Shown here: positions 3,500 through 61,412 of the stretch, one piece after another
How the letters are laid out: every line of letters starts with the position of its first letter
Numbering within the stretch: position 1 is the first letter of the stretch
Source: Longimicrobiales bacterium
GTDB taxonomy: Bacteria > Gemmatimonadota > Gemmatimonadetes > Longimicrobiales > RSA9
Assembly (NCBI GenBank): GCA_035465395.1
Contig: DATHRK010000015.1
Location: 7,916-71,915, forward strand
Direction of reading: 5' to 3'
Length of the DNA: 64,000 nucleotides
Made by a program: the position numbers and the translations under genes
Notes under the pieces: generated by a model
The model's input: the letters and a program-made list of their open reading frames with translations, nothing else
The model's database searches: none
Told to the model about the DNA's origin: nothing

Positions 3500-5043
3500 C
3501 AGCGCCCCCCGCCGAACGGATTGGAGCGGCTGCGGATCCGGTCGACGAGCTCCTGCTGCTCCTGCTGCAGGCGCGCGACCGAGATGAGGTAGACCTGCTC
3601 GCCCTCCTCCACGCCGCGCAGCACCTCGGTCGACTCCCAATCGTTCAGCCCGAGCATCACGAAGCGTGGCTCCGGGCCGTCGACGCCCTTCACGAACACC
3701 ACGCCGGGCCGAGGACGCACGCCCGCCATCTCCTCGTCGTCGGCCCCCGGCGGCGTAGCCGTGCCCGCGGCTCCGCGCATGCGCCGGAAGCACGCGCCCG
3801 CGTCCGGCCGCTCGGCTTCGGTGAGGGCCGCACGGCCCTCGTCGCGCACCTTAGCCATCAGTTCGCGACACCGATCGTCGCTCGGCGCGGCGGCCGACGC
3901 ACCGGCGGCGGCGCCCTGCGTGGCCCCGCTGGCTCCCGTCCGCGCGGAGCTCCCGTTCCCGGCCGGGCCGCTCGTACCCGCACGCCCGCCATCCCCCGCC
4001 GCCACCGGACCGTCCGGACGGGGGCCGCCGGCCCCGGGGGCGCCCCGTCGGCCGGCGAACTGCTCGCGCATCGCGTCCTCGTCGAGCCCGAGCACGGCCG
4101 CGGCGGCCATCGCGTCCGCCGGGCTCACCACAGCCGAGTTCGGGACCGTGAGCACGTCCGGACGCCGCGCGATCTCCACCCGCACCTCGGCGTTCATTCC
4201 GGGTTTGAGCGCGCCGTCGGGGTTGGGCAACTGCACGAGGACCGGGAACATCGTGACGTTCTGATCGACCACGGCCTGCGGCTCGATCTTGGTCACCGTG
4301 CCGGTGAAGTTCCGATTGGGGAAGGCCTCCACCTGGACCGTGGCGGTCTGGCCGGGCTGCACGCGCCCGATGTCGGTCTCATCCACCAGCGTGCGGACCT
4401 GCATCGTCGAGATGTCGGCCATGAGGAGCAGCGTCGTGCCGCCGGAGATGTTCTGGCTCGCGGAAGCGATGATCTGGCCCGTCTCCACGTCCTTCTGGAT
4501 GACGACACCGTCGATCGGCGAGCGGATCGTCACGTCCCCGAGGCGCTCGCGAGCCAGCTCGAGCGACGTGCGGGCCTTGATGTAGTTGGCGTTGGCGTTG
4601 GCGAGCTCCAGCGCCGCGCTCTCCAGCTCCTGTTCCGTGACGACGCCGGCCTCGCGCAGCTCGGACACGCGCTCGTGCTGCGCCTGCGCCGTGGACAGGC
4701 GGGCGCGCGCGACCTCCAGATCGGCGTCGGCCTGAGCGTAGCCGTTGCGGACGTCTCGCGGGTCGATTTCCGCGAGCAGCGCGCCGCGCTCCACGACGTC
4801 GCCGGTCTCGACGTGCATCCGGAGCACCTCCCCGGAGGCCTTGGATTTCACCTCGATGACGCGCGGCGGCTCCATCAGTCCCGCGGCTTCGGCGGTGATG
4901 TCGAGCGTGGCGCGGACCACGGGCTGTACGTCTGCGCTGCCGGGTTGCTCGGCGGCGTCGGCCGAGCCGCACGCGGCCGCCGCGAGGATCGCGAGCGCCG
5001 GGAAGAAGCGCGCGCGGCACTCCTGGAGACGGGTCCGGTTCAC
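3499..5043 (-). CDS. Efflux periplasmic adaptor (HlyD/MFP family) lipoprotein
   Basis: Lipobox LAAAAC, a coiled-coil hairpin (ADADLEVARARLSTAQAQHERVSEL) and a beta-barrel region. The GTG start overlaps the TolC stop (GTGA, 5040-5043). There is a Gly/Ala/Pro-rich low-complexity insert near the C-terminus. Confidence 0.8.
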   Translation of the reverse strand: MNRTRLQECRARFFPALAILAAAACGSADAAEQPGSADVQPVVRATLDITAEAAGLMEPPRVIEVKSKASGEVLRMHVETGDVVERGALLAEIDPRDVRNGYAQADADLEVARARLSTAQAQHERVSELREAGVVTEQELESAALELANANANYIKARTSLELARERLGDVTIRSPIDGVVIQKDVETGQIIASASQNISGGTTLLLMADISTMQVRTLVDETDIGRVQPGQTATVQVEAFPNRNFTGTVTKIEPQAVVDQNVTMFPVLVQLPNPDGALKPGMNAEVRVEIARRPDVLTVPNSAVVSPADAMAAAAVLGLDEDAMREQFAGRRGAPGAGGPRPDGPVAAGDGGRAGTSGPAGNGSSARTGASGATQGAAAGASAAAPSDDRCRELMAKVRDEGRAALTEAERPDAGACFRRMRGAAGTATPPGADDEEMAGVRPRPGVVFVKGVDGPEPRFVMLGLNDWESTEVLRGVEEGEQVYLISVARLQQEQQELVDRIRSRSNPFGGGR

Positions 5044-6422
5044 GAAAGATCCCTTCCTACGAGCGCCTCCAACTCGGCGCGCGCGATCTGATAGTCGTAC
5101 CGCGCGGCGATCTCGTCGGTCTCCGCCTGCGCGAGGTTCAACTGCGACGTAATGAGGTCGAGGATCGTCGAGGCACCCAAACGGTACCGCTCGTCCTGCA
5201 CCCGCAGATCCTCCCGTGCGACCTCCACGGCCTCGGCCGTGAGCGTGACGCGCTCCTCGGCGAGCCGGAGCGCACCCAGGAGCCGCTCGAAGTCCACGCG
5301 GGCGGCCCTGCGGGCATCCCGAAGCTGAAAGCGTGCCACGTTCTCGGAGATCCGTGCGCGGGTGACGGCGGTCTCCCGCTGGAACCCGTTGAATACCGGC
5401 AGCGACACGGACAGGCCCATGTTCCAGCTGGAGCTGCCCTGGTCGAAGGAGAACTGGTCGTTGAACCAGTTCAGGTTGCTGGACGCCCGCAGCGTGGGGA
5501 AGTAGGAGGCGCGCGCCACGTCGACGCCGGCCTCGGCCGAGCGGACCTCGGCCTGCGCGGTAATGACCGCCGGGCTCGTCGACTCCACGATCCGCCGCAG
5601 CTCGTCCTCGGAGAGCGCGAGCGGGCGCACCACGACCGGCTCCGCCAGCGCCGCGCCCACCCGATCGTCCACCCCGGTCACCCGTCCCAACGTGTAGGTG
5701 GCGACGGTCCACGCGGTGCGCTCGGTGAGTTCGGCCTGGCGGGCGTCGTTCAGCTCGAGGCGCGACCGCAGCACGTCCGAACGGGTGGCCGTGCCCACCT
5801 GCAGCCGGCGATCCGCCGCGGTGAGCGATTCCTCCGCGCGCCGGATGCGCGCCCCGGAGACGCGCAGGAGCTCCTCGCGGCGGAGCACGTCGTAGAAGGC
5901 GGTCTTGGCCGCCAGCACCACGTCGAACCGGCGTTGCCGCGCCGTCGCCTCGGCGGCCTCCAGAGCGGCCGAAGCGTTGTCGATCTCGGCGCCACGTCTG
6001 CCGCCGTTCCAGATGTCGACGCCCGCGTTGAGACCGGCGTTGTAGCTGTTCGAAGATCCCGTGACCGTCGTGTTGGTCTGCGGATTGAATCGGTTGCTGG
6101 ACGAACGCGAGGCGCCGGAGTTCGCGTTGATGTTCGGCAGGTAGGCGCCGTACGCGCTACGGCGGCCCGCCTCCGCGGATCGGACGCCCGCGGTCGCCTG
6201 CGCCATCGTGGGGCTCACGGCGAGTGCGCGTTCGATCGCTTCGTCGAGCGACATGACGGTCGCGGGCGGGTCCGGGACCGTGGGCCCGGCGTCGGTCACG
6301 GCCACCGCGGAATCGGGGGCCTGCGCGACGGAGGGCCCGGCGCCGACGGTGATGGCCGCGGCGAGCGCCAGGAGCGCACCGGCGCACCACCGGCGCGACG
6401 GGACAGGCAGGGGGGCTGTCAT
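5040..6422 (-). CDS. TolC-family outer membrane efflux protein
   Basis: Signal peptide ending VAQA, and the duplicated TolC repeat pattern (two stretches of the form LxxAxxxY..G.....dvl.a...l). Confidence 0.8.
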   Translation of the reverse strand: MTAPLPVPSRRWCAGALLALAAAITVGAGPSVAQAPDSAVAVTDAGPTVPDPPATVMSLDEAIERALAVSPTMAQATAGVRSAEAGRRSAYGAYLPNINANSGASRSSSNRFNPQTNTTVTGSSNSYNAGLNAGVDIWNGGRRGAEIDNASAALEAAEATARQRRFDVVLAAKTAFYDVLRREELLRVSGARIRRAEESLTAADRRLQVGTATRSDVLRSRLELNDARQAELTERTAWTVATYTLGRVTGVDDRVGAALAEPVVVRPLALSEDELRRIVESTSPAVITAQAEVRSAEAGVDVARASYFPTLRASSNLNWFNDQFSFDQGSSSWNMGLSVSLPVFNGFQRETAVTRARISENVARFQLRDARRAARVDFERLLGALRLAEERVTLTAEAVEVAREDLRVQDERYRLGASTILDLITSQLNLAQAETDEIAARYDYQIARAELEALVGRDLS

Positions 6423-40727: not shown

Positions 40728-40790
40728 ATGGGCGGCGCGGATGACGGGTCTCGCGGGGTTCGCCGGAGTCAGGGCGTGAAGAAGAAAGGC

Positions 40791-43700
40791 ATGGAACGCC
40801 GTGACTTCCTGAAGGTCGTCGGCGCCGCCGGCGCCGGAACCGGTCTCGCCGGCTGCACCACCGGGGCCGCCGAGAACCTCATTCCCTACGTCGTACCGCC
40901 GGAAGAGATCGTTCCCGGCATCGCGACCTGGTATCGCACGACGTGCAGGGAGTGCGACGCCGGCTGCGGCATGAGCGTGCGCACGCGTGAAGGGCGGGCG
41001 GTGAAGGCCGAGGGCAACGCCCTCTCGCCGGTCTCGCACGGTCGACTCTGCGCGCGCGGTCAGGCTTCGCTGCAGGGCCTCTACGACCCCGACCGGGTGC
41101 CGCAGGCGCTGCGTCGCGGATCGGGGGGCGGTTGGGACCGCGTCACATGGGACGCCGCAGAGCAGGAACTGGCGCGGGGGATCGCCGAGGCGGACGGCAG
41201 CGCGGTGTTCCTCACCGGATCCTCGAGCGGCACGATGGACCGGCTGATCGACGACTGGTGCGCCGCGATGGGGGTCGAGCGGGTCCGCTTCGACGCCTTC
41301 GGGCTCGAGGCCGTGCGCACCGCGAGCCGACTCGTGTACGGCCGGGAGGGCGTCCCCCGGCACGACCTCGCGGCGGCCGAGGTGGTGGTCACGTTCGGCG
41401 CCGACTTCATGGAGACCTGGGGCTCTCCGGTCGACTACACGCACGGTTTCGTGCAATCCCATGCCTACCAGGACGGCCGGCGGGGTCGCCTCATCGCGGT
41501 GGGTCCGCACCTGTCGCTCACCGGCCTGTCCGCCGACGACTGGATCGCGGCGCGTGCCGGCACCGAGCACCTCGTCGCGCTGGCGATGGCGCGGCTGGTG
41601 GCCGAGTCCACGGGCGCCGCGCTCGACGGACCGCTCGCGAGCGTCGACGTCGCCGCCGCGGCGCAGGCCGCCGACGTGGACGTGGAGGCGGTCCGTAACG
41701 CCGCGCTCGCGTTCGCGAACGACGGGCGCTCGGTGGCGATGGGCCCGGGCGTCGCGGCGACGAGCAGCGCCGCGACCGCGCTTGCCACGGCGGTCGCCCT
41801 GCTCAACCGGGCTGCCGGCAACGTCGGCCGGACGGTGTTCCCCGCAGAGGCCGAGCTCGGCCCGGCGGGCACCTACGCCGCCTTGAGCGATTTGATCGAC
41901 CGGGCCTCGGCCGGCACACTCGGCGCGCTGCTGATCCACGGCGCCAACCCGCTGCACGGCGTGCCGCTCTCCGCCGACGCGGCCGCGGCGCTCGATCGCG
42001 TCGGCTTCATCGCGTCGTTCGCGTCGCAGCTCGATGAGACCGCCGCGCGCGCGCACCTCCTCCTCCCCGACCACCACTTCCTGGAAGCGTGGGGCGACGT
42101 GGAGCCGCGGCCGGGCGTGTTCGGGATCGTGCAGCCGGTGATGCGGCCGGTCTTCCAGACCAAGCAGACGGGCGATGTCCTGTTGTCGGTCGCGCGGCGC
42201 GCCGGCGCGTCCCTGCCGAACGCTGCCAACACCTTCTACGACTATCTCCGCGCGCGCTGGACGCGGGACGTCGTGCCCGGCGCCGACGAAGAGGCGTGGC
42301 GGGCCGCGCTGCGCACGGGGGTGGTCGTCGCGCAGGGCGGAACCGCGTCGGCGCCCCCGCCCATCGCGGCCCTGGCCGGAGCACCGAACCAGGCGGCGCA
42401 GTCCGACGCGCAGCAGCAGCCTCAGCCCGGCGCGCAGCAGCAGCCCGCCGGTCCGATCGCCGCCGCCGCGGGTTCGCGGCCCGCCAGCGTAGCGGACGTC
42501 GACTTCGCGCGCGCCGAGCTCGCCGGTGCGGACGACGCCGAGTTCGATCTCGTGGTCTATCCGTCCTACCGGTTCCTCGACGGCCGCCTCGCGAACCGCT
42601 CGTGGCTGCAGGAGCTCCCCGATCCGGTCAGCAAGATCGCCTGGAGCTCCTGGGTGGAGATGCACCCGGACGCCGCTGCGGAGCGCGACCTGGATGTCGG
42701 CCACATCGTCACGGTCGCGACCGAGCAGGGCGACTTCGAGCTCCCCGTCTGGACCCACCCCGGCGTGCGCGAGGACACCATCGCCGTGCAGCTCGGGCAG
42801 GGCCATACCAACCTCGGTCGCTACGCGAGGAATCGGGGCGTCGACGCGGCGCGCATGCTCGCCCCGCTCGTCGACGCCTCCTCCGGCGGGGTCGTGTGGA
42901 TCCAGACGCGGGCGGCCGTAACCGCCACCGGACGGTGGGAACGGCTCCCGTACACCGAGGGCGAGTCGGATGCCTCTGCGCGCGACGTGGCGAAGGCGAT
43001 GTCGCTCGAGGACGCGCGGGCCGCCGAGCCGGTCGACATCCTCGGGCTCGCGGCGTACCGGGCAGGGGTCGAGAACGCCCCGGGCGGCGAGGGCAACGCG
43101 CGCGGGCAGGAGGCCGACCACGCCGACCCGATGCCGATCGGGAGCGCGCCACACCACGGCCAGCCCCACCCGCTCGAGGCCCAGGTCGACGAGCTTCAGG
43201 CCGCGGGCGGCTTCGGTCCGATCGTCGGCATGGGCGCGGCGCCCCAGGACTACCCGCCGCCCGACACCTATTACGGCGAGTACTCGGAGGAGAAGCCCCG
43301 CTGGGCCCTGGCGATCGACACGGAGCGCTGCACCGGATGCAGCGCCTGCATGACCGCGTGTTACGCCGAGAACAACATCGCCGTGATCGGCCCGGAGCAG
43401 GTCGCCAAGGGCCGGCTGCTCTCCTGGATCCGCATCGAGCGGTATTGGGAGCTCGGCCACGAAGAGGGCGGAGGCGAGCATTTCCAGGGCACCCGCTTCC
43501 TGCCGGTCATGTGCCAGCAGTGCGGCAACGCGCCGTGCGAGCCGGTGTGTCCGGTCTACGCCTCCTACCACACGCCCGAGGGCCTGAACGCGCAGGTCTA
43601 CAACCGCTGCGTAGGCACGCGGTACTGCGCGAACAACTGCCCGTACAAGGTGCGACAGTACAACTACTACACGGCGGAATGGCCCGAGCCGCTGAACTGG

Positions 43701-44020
43701 CAGCTCAACCCCGACGTGACGGTGCGCGAGAAGGGCGTCATGGAGAAGTGCACGTTCTGCGTGCAGCGCATCCGTGACGCGCAGCACCACGCGAGGATCG
43801 AGGACCGGCCCGTGGCCGACGGCGAGATCGTGCCGGCGTGCGCCCAGACCTGCCCCGGCGACGCGATCGTCTTCGGCGACATCAAGGACCCGACGTCGCG
43901 GGTCGCCCAGGTGTCGGCCTCGGGCCGCGCCTACCGGATGCTCGGCGAGCTCAACACGCAGCCCGGCGTCACCTACCTGCAGCGCGTGTCGATGCACGCG
44001 GAATCCGGGGAGTCACACTG

Positions 44021-44021
<1 letters not shown>
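40791..44021 (+). CDS. actB: Alternative complex III subunit ActB (fused molybdopterin-like B1 and Fe-S B2 domains)
   Basis: Tat signal MERRDFLKVVGAAGAG. CISM-like N-terminal domain, a Gln/Pro-rich linker, and ferredoxin Cys clusters (CTGCSACMTAC, CQQCGNAPCEPVCP, CVGTRYCANNCP, CTFC). Alternative GTG start at 40776. Confidence 0.9.
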
Positions 44022-45465
<1,444 letters not shown>

Positions 45466-45466
<1 letters not shown>

Positions 45467-59196: not shown

Positions 59197-59228
59197 GGCT
59201 TCGAGAGCGACGCGCCTCGACGAAGTGC

Positions 59229-59263
59229 TGCGGGGCAAGCGGAGGCGATCCGCTTGCCCCGCA
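59229..59263. terminator. Strong bidirectional terminator hairpin between convergent genes
   Basis: 14-bp stem TGCGGGGCAAGCGG / CCGCTTGCCCCGCA with a 7-nt loop. Confidence 0.6.
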
Positions 59264-59293
59264 ATCTATGGAAAACCGTTCCCCGCTACCGAT

Positions 59294-59800
59294 CTACTCC
59301 TCGGCGGGCAGGACCACGGTGTCGATGACGTGAATCACGCCGTTTGACGCCGGCACGTCGGCCGCGACCACGGTCGCGGCGTCCACCATGACCGTGCCTT
59401 CCACCACGCGCACGCTCAGCGCCTGGCCCTGTGCGGTCGTCGGCGCGGCCTTCCCCGCGGAGAGCACGTCTGCCGCCGAGATACGCCCCGGTACGACGTG
59501 ATACTTGAGAATGGCGGCCAGCTTGTCGGTGTCGGCCAGAAGCGCCTCCACGGTCCCCTCGGGAAGCTTGGCGAACGCCTCATCCGTAGGGGCGAAGACG
59601 GTGAACGGGCCGTCGCTCTTCAGCACGTCAACGAGCCCGGCGGCTTCGACCGCGGCCAGCAGCGTCTGGAAGGATCCGGCTTCCGCCGCGACCTCCACGA
59701 TGTCGCCACCCTCAGCCGCCTCCTCCTGCGCCGTGAGCGCCATCGGGAAGGCGAGAACCGCGAGCATGCCCAGGCCGGGCAGCACCTTGGAAACATTCAC
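59294..59800 (-). CDS. Fasciclin (FAS1) domain protein, secreted
   Basis: GPFTVFAPTDEAFAKLP, KYHVVPG, NGVIHVIDTVVLP, with a signal peptide. GTG at 59800 has AAGGGG upstream; the alternative is ATG at 59767. Confidence 0.8.
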   Translation of the reverse strand: MNVSKVLPGLGMLAVLAFPMALTAQEEAAEGGDIVEVAAEAGSFQTLLAAVEAAGLVDVLKSDGPFTVFAPTDEAFAKLPEGTVEALLADTDKLAAILKYHVVPGRISAADVLSAGKAAPTTAQGQALSVRVVEGTVMVDAATVVAADVPASNGVIHVIDTVVLPAEE

Positions 59801-59842
59801 TTGAGTACCCCTTGCTACAGGTTTGTTTAAGTCGTGTCCAGA

Positions 59843-59871
59843 ACAGTACGCCTCCAATGCGGGGATGTCAA
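59843..59871 (-). promoter_or_regulatory. Candidate promoter of the fasciclin gene
   Basis: Minus strand reads TTGACA (59866-59871), a 17-nt spacer, then TACTGT (59843-59848). Confidence 0.5.
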
Positions 59872-59892
59872 GGATCTGTTCAAGACGTAGCC

Positions 59893-59921
59893 TTGACACT
59901 CATTCGCCGTGCATCTACCGT
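59893..59921 (+). promoter_or_regulatory. Candidate promoter of the carH-like gene
   Basis: TTGACA (59893-59898), a 17-nt spacer, then TACCGT (59916-59921). It mirrors the fasciclin promoter. Confidence 0.5.
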
Positions 59922-59954
59922 GGGAGAGACCGCGGGTCCCCCGAAGTCGTCAAC

Positions 59955-60890
59955 ATGACCACGAGCGATAAGAGAGAAGCTGCCATCCACCCGATCGGCG
60001 TCGTCGCGGAGCGCGCCGGCGTCAGCCCCGACGTCGTGCGCGCATGGGAGCGGCGTTATGGGGTCGTGGAGCCGGAGCGAGATGCTTCCGGCCGGCGTGT
60101 ATACACCCAGTCGGACATCGACCGGCTGGTCCTCCTGGCGCGAGCTACAGAGGGCGGCCGCTCCATCGGTCAGGTCGCGAACCTCGAGGACGAAGTGCTC
60201 GAAGAGCTCATTCGCCAGAGGGTCGCCGCCCGCGCCTCCACCGGTCCGCTGGATCTACCCGCGGATTCGGGAGAACTGGTCCAGGAGGGGATGCGCCTCG
60301 TGCGCGCTCTCGATGGGCACCAACTGGAGGTGTTCCTCCTGCACGCGGCATCGCGCCACGGCGTTCCCGTCCTCCTGCGCGCCGTGGTCGGTCCCCTCTT
60401 CCGCGCAATCGGCGTCGAGTGGCACGCCGGCAATCTGACGGCGGCGCAGGAGCACCTGGCGACGACGACCGTACGGGGTGTGCTCGTGCGCTTGCTCGGA
60501 AGCCTCCCTCGGATCGACGATGCGCCGGTTCTGCTTGCCGCGACGCCGACCGGCGAAAGGCACGAAATAGGGATTTTGATGGTCGTGGCGGAAGCCGTCA
60601 CGCTGGGCTGGCGCGTCACCTATCTCGGCGCGGATCTCCCCGCCGAGGAGATCGCGTCGGCCGCGAAGCAGACGGGGGCTCGCGCGGTTGCCCTGGGTGC
60701 GGTGTACACGCCGGACCCGGCGCGTCTGGTGAGGGAGATCGCCGCGCTTCGCCGAGCCCTTTCGGAGGACATCGCCCTCATGGTGGGAGGCGCAGCCGTC
60801 CGCCCCCTCGACCTACCCGAGGGCGACGGAAAGACCGTCTACATACGGGACCTCGACGAGCTGCGAACCGAGTTGAACGCGCTGGCCTGA
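59955..60890 (+). CDS. carH: MerR-family, B12-binding light-responsive regulator (CarH/LitR type)
   Basis: MerR HTH IGVVAERAGVSPDVVRAWERRYG. Wx9EH motif WHAGNLTAAQEH (W codon at 60420-60422). B12 loop GERHEIG (His codon at 60561-60563), followed by a Rossmann-like region. Confidence 0.8.
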   Translation: MTTSDKREAAIHPIGVVAERAGVSPDVVRAWERRYGVVEPERDASGRRVYTQSDIDRLVLLARATEGGRSIGQVANLEDEVLEELIRQRVAARASTGPLDLPADSGELVQEGMRLVRALDGHQLEVFLLHAASRHGVPVLLRAVVGPLFRAIGVEWHAGNLTAAQEHLATTTVRGVLVRLLGSLPRIDDAPVLLAATPTGERHEIGILMVVAEAVTLGWRVTYLGADLPAEEIASAAKQTGARAVALGAVYTPDPARLVREIAALRRALSEDIALMVGGAAVRPLDLPEGDGKTVYIRDLDELRTELNALA

Positions 60891-60891
60891 C

Positions 60892-60906
60892 GCGCGCAAA
60901 GCGCGC
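60892..60906. terminator. Short GC hairpin between convergent genes
   Basis: GCGCGC-AAA-GCGCGC. No U-tract follows. Confidence 0.25.
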
Positions 60907-60938
60907 TGCGGCGGCCATCCGGGCCACGGGGCGCCGAC

Positions 60939-61412
60939 CTAGTCGAGCCCTTCCAGCACGGCGATCGCGTCGCGTGCCGTCAGCCGCCCCACCTTGCCGC
61001 TCGAGTACACGGCGTGGGCGACCGTCCCGTCCCGGTGGAGCACGAAGCCGGCCGGCTGAACGTGGGCCTTGCCCTCGCGGGTGCCCGTGTAACAGCCGAT
61101 GGCTCGGGACATGGCCTCGGCGTCCAGCCCGTAGAGAACGGTGTAGTGGAGATCGAGCCGTTCGACGACGCCGCGCGCGTCCGATTCCGAATCGGACGAC
61201 AGCGCGACCACCTGCGCGTCCAGGGCCTCGATCTCGGCCAGATGCTCCTCCATGTCGGCCAACTGCCGACGACAGTGGCTTCACCAATGTCCGCGGTAGA
61301 ACACGAGGACGGCGCGCAGGCCGTCGAGGTCGTCGGGGATAGCGAAGTGGCTACCATCGACGGCCTGCGCGTCGACGTGCGGGAAGCGGTCACCGGTGGC
61401 GAGCTTGGTCAT
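60939..61412 (-). CDS. Peroxiredoxin-like (PRX_like2/AhpC-TSA) protein with an in-frame TGA; probable selenoprotein (UxxC)
   Basis: Track ORFs 61281..61658 and 60939..61262 share one frame. The joined product reads ...VLVFYRGHW-[TGA 61281-61283]-SHCRRQL...VVALSSD, matching the WCxxC...S.D pattern. ATG at 61412. Confidence 0.65.
61254..61270 (-). promoter_or_regulatory. SECIS-like hairpin downstream of the in-frame UGA
   Basis: The mRNA can form GUCGGC-AGUUG-GCCGAC: six perfect base pairs and a 5-nt loop containing GU. It starts 10 nt after the UGA. Confidence 0.45.

Follow-up and report, generated by a model that had tools for sequence, protein, structure and literature searches.

A 64-kb stretch of a Longimicrobiales bacterium contig (GCA_035465395.1, DATHRK010000015.1), hereafter the window, holds a gene for a predicted B12-dependent light-sensing repressor of the CarH/LitR type, which stands back to back with a gene for a single-domain fasciclin (FAS1) protein. 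The two genes share an intergenic region of 154 bp (59801-59954) with two divergent promoters and a set of 11-bp-phased operator repeats, and both the gene pair and the operator recur in related genomes. We consider it likely that CarH with bound adenosylcobalamin (AdoCbl) represses the fasciclin gene and its own gene in the dark, and that light relieves this repression. A preceding sequence-only reading had pointed to the same locus, and the elements it had listed are all in place: the octamers at 59866-59873, 59877-59884 and 59891-59898, the hexamers TACCGT and TACTGT, the 17-nt spacers and the 154 bp between the genes.

The regulator carries the Pfam domains MerR_1 (residues 14-78, E 1.1e-14), B12-binding_2 and B12-binding (PF02310, residues 193-283, E 1.2e-11), and among solved structures it comes closest to full-length Thermus thermophilus CarH (TtCarH; 5c8d, E 8e-26, over residues 9-261). 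The motifs that define CarH, and separate it from the B12-independent CarA, were set by the Elias-Arnanz/Padmanabhan group as RxWERRY, Wx9EH and D/ExHx2G/P-x41-SxT/V-x22-27-GG (PMC9304148). The window protein has a recognition helix of the form R29-A-W31-E-R-R-Y35 (RAWERRY) in its winged helix-turn-helix and a complete Wx9EH cap, W156-HAGNLTAAQ-E166-H167, within WHAGNLTAAQEH, the TtCarH counterpart of which is AWHRGEIGVAEEH; GERHEIG supplies E201-x-H203-xx-G206, with H203 36 residues after H167. The Rossmann spacings (E201-R-H203-E-I-G206, 41 residues, G248-A-V250, 27 residues, G278-G279) fit the definition except for a Ser-to-Gly change. Alignment with Thermus CarH, the check that the sequence-only reading had proposed for its two signatures, places W156/H157/E166/H167 and E201/H203/G206 on the cap and lower-axial-ligand residues of TtCarH (W131/E141/H142/H177), and the assignment of the protein to the CarH/LitR type is borne out by motifs and fold alike. 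Invariant among 41 aligned homologues are R29, W31, R33, R34, W156, E166, H167, H203, G206, G278 and G279, and Wx9EH is present in 75 of 77 related proteins.

An AlphaFold2 model of the protein (pLDDT 89.9) gave full-length TtCarH chains (5c8d, 5c8e, 5c8f) as all of its top 12 Foldseek matches (E 1e-15 to 1e-13); the cobalamin-binding domain of the model alone superimposes on TtCarH with a TM score of 0.77-0.83 and a root mean square deviation of about 3 Å. The best NCBIfam match is NF052513, 'HTH-type transcriptional repressor CarH', an equivalog model (residues 10-303 against 5-270 of 274, E 1.1e-33), and homologues are annotated by JGI as 'light-induced transcriptional regulator'. The closest database protein is 99% identical and belongs to a cluster that includes HSM35089.1, from a Longimicrobiales metagenome-assembled genome; further homologues are named Gemmatimonadota. 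A contig search with the single window protein returned, among the matches listed, only unrelated MerR or B12-domain proteins from Streptococcus and other taxa.

As judged from its predicted domains, the protein is a full-length CarH/LitR homologue and falls into class I of Takano's LitR classification (PMC9758184). Class II LitR, described there as a four-helix bundle with no Rossmann B12 domain, was ruled out by the PF02310 match, and the complete motif speaks against a CarA-type B12-independent paralogue, in which the Trp and flanking residues of Wx9EH are lost. In 50 of 73 motif-bearing related CarH proteins (homologues in the loci that we number L016-L095), QxHxxG replaces D/ExHxxG, with the His still 35-37 residues beyond the EH of Wx9EH; in the window protein the motif takes the classical form, ExHxxG.

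Both promoters in the intergenic region have a perfect TTGACA -35 box and a spacer of optimal length, 17 nt, and the two -35 boxes lie 21 bp apart. The arrangement TGTCAA-N21-TTGACA occurs once in 64 kb at no more than one mismatch, against 0.01 expected. The mirror symmetry of the two promoters, as it had been described from the sequence, is not peculiar to the window: the -35 boxes, their 21-bp separation and -10 boxes of the TAnnnT type are kept in relatives down to about 40% identity. With the regions anchored on TGTCAA, back-to-back -35 boxes 20-22 bp apart were found in 21 of 33 related intergenic regions, and in 14 of these the separation is exactly 21 bp. MerR-type activators typically act on an over-long spacer of 19-20 bp, with their operator between -35 and -10. 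Activation of this kind, by promoter distortion, was rejected here, as both spacers are 17 nt. Consensus -35 boxes with 17-nt spacers argue instead for strong promoters that need a repressor.

CarH operators have been described as tandem 11-bp repeats of the form nnnnTnnACAn, lying over the -35 or -10, often with the TTGACA -35 inside one repeat; those characterised have three repeats for TtCarH and four for Bacillus CarH, in one orientation (PMC9304148). The window has four TnnACA elements on the minus strand (59824-29, 59835-40, 59866-71, 59877-82) and a fifth on the plus strand (59893-98). They make two pairs spaced exactly 11 bp, and both -35 boxes are themselves repeats. Read directly, TGTCAAGG occupies 59866-59873, TGTTCAAG starts 11 bp later at 59877-59884, and CCTTGACA at 59891-59898 holds the carH -35. 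The core thus reads TGTCAA (59866-71), TGTTCA (59877-82), a pseudo-repeat AAGACG (59882-87) and TTGACA (59893-98); its pair 59866/59877 spans the fasciclin -35 and adjoins the carH -35, and at its centre, at 59877-87, is the 11-bp near-palindrome TGTTCAAGACG (L012 has TGTCCAGGACA), which is kept as TGTYCWRGACA in L006, L008, L011-L014 and L098. The second pair, which the sequence-only reading had missed (59824-29/59835-40), lies 31 bp from the core and spans the predicted fasciclin transcription start; within it the palindrome-like TGTCCAGAACA (59835-45) shares 3 bp with the fasciclin -10. This second pair coincides with the conserved alignment block 'ttgtcnaannnttgTccAgg'. A scan of the 64 kb for tandem TGTNNA-N5-TGTNNA gave two occurrences (0.18 expected), both of them between these two genes; for the stricter TGTYMA-N5-TGTYMA it gave one (0.00 expected). 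A CrtJ/PpsR-type site (TGT-N12-ACA) was rejected, since the spacing does not fit.

The same phasing is seen across related loci. In 32 fasciclin-carH intergenic regions we counted 58 TnnACA pairs at 11 bp, compared to 0-2 at any other spacing between 8 and 14 bp and 0.36 +/- 0.6 in shuffled sequences, and in 40 CarH loci without fasciclin there were 45 such pairs, again against 0-2 at the other spacings and 0.48 in shuffles. As the 11-bp pairs, which precede carH in 26 of these 40 loci, are enriched in the absence of fasciclin too, the motif belongs to CarH and not to fasciclin. Over all loci, TnnACA pairs lie upstream of 38 of 73 carH genes, 14 of 28 fasciclin genes and 5 of 7 DUF378 genes, compared to 10 of 253 other genes. 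The conserved blocks in the 14 loci with 21-bp separation comprise TGTCCA at +11 from TGTCAA, the carH -10 and, 31 bp leftward, a further TGTnnA-N5-TGTCCA pair by the fasciclin -10 and over the start site. In a distant clade, TGGACA follows 11 bp past TTGACA, and four repeats make up a 44-bp two-fold-symmetric set; repeats of both orientations are thus found in the window clade and in the distant clade, in contrast to the unidirectional characterised operators. We conclude from these motif counts that the TnnACA rule, derived from three model proteins, holds across these related loci. This specific enrichment at 11 bp shows the earlier idea of an 11-bp phase, which is also the published rule (PMC9304148), to be right, whereas the repeat unit proposed with it, CCTTGACA, has to be replaced by TnnACA, or TGTnnA on the opposite strand.

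The divergent fasciclin-carH arrangement was found in 7 of 7 close relatives; of the non-redundant relatives at 55-90% identity (L006, L008, L011-L014), every one retains it, while the outer flanks differ. A metagenome scan with the family alignment yielded 80 more loci at 34-49% identity, 61 of them with at least 700 bp upstream; a divergent fasciclin gene was present in 25 of these 61 distant CarH loci, which range from 49 to 73% in GC content. One of these loci, L016, belongs to the Gammaproteobacteria as judged from the nearest named relatives, and two further loci of Gammaproteobacteria type, L096 (GCA_012974725.1) and L098, have the pair as well. On clustering of the neighbours, fasciclin was by far the commonest (29 loci), followed by an NAD-binding/DUF2867 protein (9), an unannotated 150-residue protein (8) and DUF378 (7), with DUF4397 (5), photolyase (4) and an amine-oxidase-like flavoprotein (3) being rarer. 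The other partners of this CarH subfamily look, by their annotation, like typical light-regulon content. Being the most frequent neighbour, fasciclin is a typical partner of this subfamily rather than an oddity. A fasciclin target had been called unusual, which holds against the published CarH regulons but not within the subfamily as sampled in metagenomes. Among the papers searched, none was found that links fasciclin with CarH or LitR, the matches being irrelevant eukaryotic work, a result that leaves room for a fasciclin in the PhrR/B12 regulon of Romine et al. 2017.

Several of these loci have additional genes. In seven (L018, L028, L041, L048, L057, L069, L070), the gene for the small membrane protein DUF378 lies between operator and fasciclin, on the fasciclin strand, and is presumably co-transcribed with fasciclin. 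Nine loci have, beside carH and often directly downstream of it on the same strand, a gene that fuses an NAD(P)-binding (NmrA/epimerase-like) domain to DUF2867 (L012 7072-8418, L014 6852-8417, L048, L057, L034, L088, L073, L028, L081); as no separate TnnACA pair precedes this gene in the eight loci that could be assessed, it may be co-transcribed with carH. L011, a relative with a 61% identical CarH on a 1.4-Mb contig, has the single-domain fasciclin followed by a second one of 308 residues with two FAS1 domains (4260-5828). In L096, a Y1 (IS200-type) transposase gene lies just beyond fasciclin (1385-2068), and the repeats are scattered over an intergenic region of 356 bp rather than compact.

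Table 1. Features of the fasciclin-carH locus in the window.
Feature	Position	Strand	Basis
fasciclin (FAS1) gene, 168 residues, GTG start, single FAS1 domain	59294..59800	-	Pfam, structure matches
Second operator pair, TGTTTA (59824-29) + TGTCCA (59835-40), 11 bp apart	59824..59845	-	motif scan; alignment block
Predicted fasciclin -10, TACTGT (plus strand ACAGTA), 17 nt from -35	59843..59848	-	sequence; conserved A..TA columns
Predicted fasciclin -35, TTGACA (plus strand TGTCAA), also operator repeat	59866..59871	-	sequence; invariant alignment block
Palindromic operator core, 33 bp, centre 59882, over both -35 boxes	59866..59898	both	sequence, motif scans
Predicted carH -35, TTGACA, also TnnACA repeat	59893..59898	+	sequence; near-invariant columns in anchored alignment of 14 loci
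Predicted carH -10, TACCGT, 17 nt past -35	59916..59921	+	sequence; TAnnnT-type consensus 'ctacct' kept there
carH/litR gene, 311 residues	59955..60890	+	Pfam, TtCarH alignment, motif columns, AlphaFold2 fold
CarH modules: MerR-type winged helix-turn-helix (residues ~12-78), linker, four-helix bundle, Rossmann B12-binding module			

By analogy with the CarH proteins of Thermus, Bacillus and Cystobacter, from which we infer B12 binding, oligomerisation, light response and direction of regulation, the switch would operate as follows. In the dark, AdoCbl would be bound with H203 as its lower axial ligand and with the W156-x9-E166-H167 cap over the adenosyl group. CarH would oligomerise, and its winged helices, through the recognition helix RAWERRY, would sit on the 11-bp-phased TnnACA repeats, occupying two clusters: the core at 59866-59898 with both -35 boxes, and the pair at 59824-59840 by the fasciclin -10 and start. 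This occupancy would block RNA polymerase at both promoters, keeping the secreted fasciclin and carH itself repressed. Light of less than about 530 nm would break the Co-C bond and the oligomer would dissociate, so that both genes could be transcribed.

A number of observations weigh against this assignment. The Ser of the SxT/V motif is Gly in the window protein (G248, in GAV; 60696-60704) and in 7 of its 8 closest relatives, while Ser is kept in 33 of the 41 aligned homologues and Gly found in 8. The NF052513 score is 116.7 bits, far from the curated cut-off of 400, and the protein would thus rank as a CarH homologue and not as an equivalog under NCBI's narrow model. The operator has only two contiguous full repeats per cluster, with mixed orientations in the core, compared to three or four in one orientation in the characterised operators. 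Among the open reading frames scanned in the 64-kb window, no carotenoid (crt), photolyase, B12 biosynthesis or B12 transport genes were seen, and an Rfam scan of the window detected no family, and hence no cobalamin riboswitch. Finally, a scan for consensus sigma-70 promoters and terminators made no calls in 59200-61000, the promoters being missed because TACCGT and TACTGT match TATAAT (the E. coli rule) at only 3 of 6 positions. The matching positions are T1, A2 and T6, which are rated the most important, and they are conserved in relatives along with the 17-nt spacing.

It is conceivable that CarH only regulates itself, that another, dimeric factor controls fasciclin from the 11-bp palindrome TGTCCAGGACA, and that the two genes are adjacent merely because they share promoter space. 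The inner element of the window clade is indeed near-palindromic (TGTYCWRGACA), as is typical of dimeric regulators, a second palindrome copy adjoins and slightly overlaps the fasciclin -10, and the CarH operators known so far consist of repeats in a single direction (PMC9304148). However, the palindrome is specific to one clade, while TGTCCA at +11 from TGTCAA is general; each half-site obeys the TnnACA rule of CarH; and the 11-bp pairs are found upstream of carH in the majority of loci that have no fasciclin, as described above. Moreover, the fasciclin -35 is itself a repeat, so that CarH bound there must occlude it. We therefore regard control of fasciclin by a separate factor as unlikely.

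The nature of the signal can be questioned in two ways. CarH might sense the availability of cobalamin, repressing with B12 whatever the illumination, with a corrinoid- or B12-linked role for fasciclin. The motifs predict B12 binding directly, light sensitivity being an extrapolation; many of the host environments (soil, sediment) are dark; and G248 takes the place of the conserved Ser. Protein-bound AdoCbl is, however, intrinsically photolabile, which counts against such a sensor. The Wx9EH cap is intact; it touches the adenosyl group and is described as crucial for photoreceptor activity (PMC9304148). H157, the counterpart of the upper ligand in the light state of TtCarH, is present. The neighbours in the subfamily include photolyase, short-chain dehydrogenase/reductase-DUF2867 and amine-oxidase-like genes, as is typical of light regulons, and fasciclin induction under singlet oxygen or high light is on record for Rhodobacter sphaeroides, Azospirillum brasilense and Synechocystis (for A. 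brasilense, as cited in another paper). A pure cobalamin sensor thus seems quite improbable to us. Alternatively, the protein could be a B12-independent repressor like CarA, relieved by an antirepressor or another signal, for example singlet oxygen via a partner protein. CarA paralogues retain the lower-axial motif and the EH and are B12-independent nonetheless (PMC9304148), and fasciclins elsewhere answer to singlet oxygen rather than directly to light. CarA, however, is without the Trp and flanking residues of Wx9EH (PMC9304148), a motif that is complete and clade-invariant here, and no gene for a CarS-like or ChrR-like protein is adjacent in any examined locus, making this the case to which we would give very little credence.

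If CarH controls fasciclin in the proposed manner, the question arises as to what the fasciclin does. The Pfam match (Fasciclin, PF02469, E 3.6e-39) covers positions 2-123 of 123, and the N-terminus, MNVSKVLPGLGMLAVLAFPMALTA, is hydrophobic and, as judged by eye, signal-peptide-like, with cleavage predicted after ...ALTA; the product is thus predicted to be a periplasmic or secreted single-FAS1 protein. The closest single-domain solved bacterial structure is Fdp of R. sphaeroides (1w7d, E 3.7e-39), that is, RSP1409, an adherence protein; RSP_1409 is also listed in the singlet-oxygen/sigmaE regulon, with log2 changes of 2.8 and 4.5. In A. brasilense, a fasciclin under RpoE-ChrR is reported, as cited in another paper, to have a role in photooxidative stress and flocculation, the periplasmic fasciclin sll1483 of Synechocystis is induced by singlet oxygen, and AstaP, a secreted carotenoid-binding fasciclin of algae, accumulates under photooxidative stress and matches the window protein with E 1.6e-16 (8c18). 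By analogy to these proteins, the window fasciclin most likely acts in the response to light or photooxidative stress. As to its actual task, the better-supported guess is a part in adhesion or aggregation, for which R. sphaeroides Fdp and the A. brasilense fasciclin are the precedents; an AstaP-like binding of carotenoids is a weaker and speculative one. In this comparison, the light-induced FAS1 protein appears as a recurring theme that would here be wired to a different sensor.

Two other features of the window may be recorded. Convergent with carH, on the minus strand at 60939-61411, lies an AhpC/TSA-family gene with an in-frame TGA (61281-61283) that falls exactly at the redox motif, VLVFYRGHW-TGA-SHC, giving UxxC for CxxC. 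With the TGA read as Cys, the product has 157 residues, matches AhpC-TSA over 2-123 of 124 (E 1.7e-18) and, weakly, a 'SelL-related redox protein'. About 10 nt past the TGA begins a GTCGGC/GCCGAC hairpin, which has AGUUG as its loop and an energy that is unexceptional for the GC content (z -0.9). The gene is a candidate selenoprotein gene rather than a pseudogene. At 40728-45466 on the plus strand, a stop-to-stop open reading frame of some 1097 codons specifies a molybdopterin-oxidoreductase fused to a 4Fe-4S protein and is followed by an NrfD-type membrane subunit, an arrangement which we take to resemble ActB/ActC of alternative complex III or a polysulfide-reductase-like complex.

While CarH/LitR proteins have been studied almost entirely as switches of carotenoid synthesis and as optogenetic parts, the commonest conserved target in this sizeable, predominantly uncultured subfamily would be a secreted fasciclin, which widens the known output of B12-based light sensing and links it to the photooxidative-stress fasciclins under other regulators. 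We put forward tentatively, as a possibility somewhat short of even, that the divergent carH and fasciclin genes, sharing one TnnACA operator, form a light-response module of wide distribution (Gemmatimonadota, Gammaproteobacteria and further uncultured lineages), in which B12 photochemistry switches on a secreted FAS1 protein. If so, FAS1 proteins would, taken with the sigmaE-ChrR fasciclins of Alphaproteobacteria, sll1483 and AstaP, amount to an effector that is general in photoprotection and has been recruited repeatedly, be it for light-triggered aggregation or adhesion or for the binding of carotenoids outside the cytoplasm, and the pair would open the function of bacterial fasciclins, long unclear, to simple genetics. 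The palindromic repeats of both orientations would imply a new DNA-binding geometry for the CarH oligomer, and the intergenic region would offer a compact natural promoter of about 100 bp that is predicted to be bidirectional and light-switchable. The family is a known one, and the kind of system is not new; what is added to it is modest, a conserved fasciclin as target and an operator with repeats in two orientations.

The nearest characterised system is TtCarH (5C8D/5C8E/5C8F), which is the best fold match and has the same order of MerR-type winged helix-turn-helix, four-helix bundle and Rossmann B12 domain, with RxWERRY, W-H-x8-E-H and ExHxxG all aligned. Its operator, too, lies between divergent genes and is made up of TnnACA repeats of 11 bp, a TTGACA -35 among them, and TtCarH regulates its own synthesis (PMC9304148). 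The two proteins differ in that they are only 26-29% identical in structural alignments, that the interdomain linker of the window protein is longer (residues ~80-115) and that the Ser of SxT/V has become Gly. The predicted target is a fasciclin rather than carotenoid genes, and the repeats form two pairs with both orientations rather than three in tandem. The CarH proteins of Bacillus megaterium and Cystobacter likewise use operators of direct and pseudo-direct repeat elements over the -35 or -10, with a plastic design and divergent gene pairs sharing one intergenic operator, but they control crt genes from four or five repeats in one orientation; Cystobacter CarH is a dimer and is also inhibited by CarS (PMC9304148).

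On the side of the target, the fasciclins under sigmaE-ChrR (RSP_1409/Fdp of R. sphaeroides and that of A. brasilense) share with the window the secreted single-FAS1 effector and the theme of light or photooxidative stress. Their regulator, however, is a pair of extracytoplasmic function sigma and anti-sigma factors sensing singlet oxygen, whereas the window has a predicted B12 photoreceptor repressor that would sense light. AstaP of Coelastrella (8C18) is also a secreted FAS1 protein with detectable homology, but it is a eukaryotic protein with additional regions at both its N- and C-termini, and its binding of carotenoids is a neofunctionalisation that has not been demonstrated in FAS1 proteins of bacteria; the window fasciclin is much closer to Fdp. 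Control of light-inducible genes other than carotenoid genes by the LitR family has a precedent in the class II and III LitR proteins of Pseudomonas and Burkholderia, for which PMC9758184 gives photolyase, folE and fatty-acid modification genes as targets, with no fasciclin among them in the text read. As portrayed in the same text, these proteins are without a Rossmann B12 domain and sense light by other means, such as a light-oxygen-voltage (LOV) partner, whereas the window protein has the Pfam B12-binding domain.

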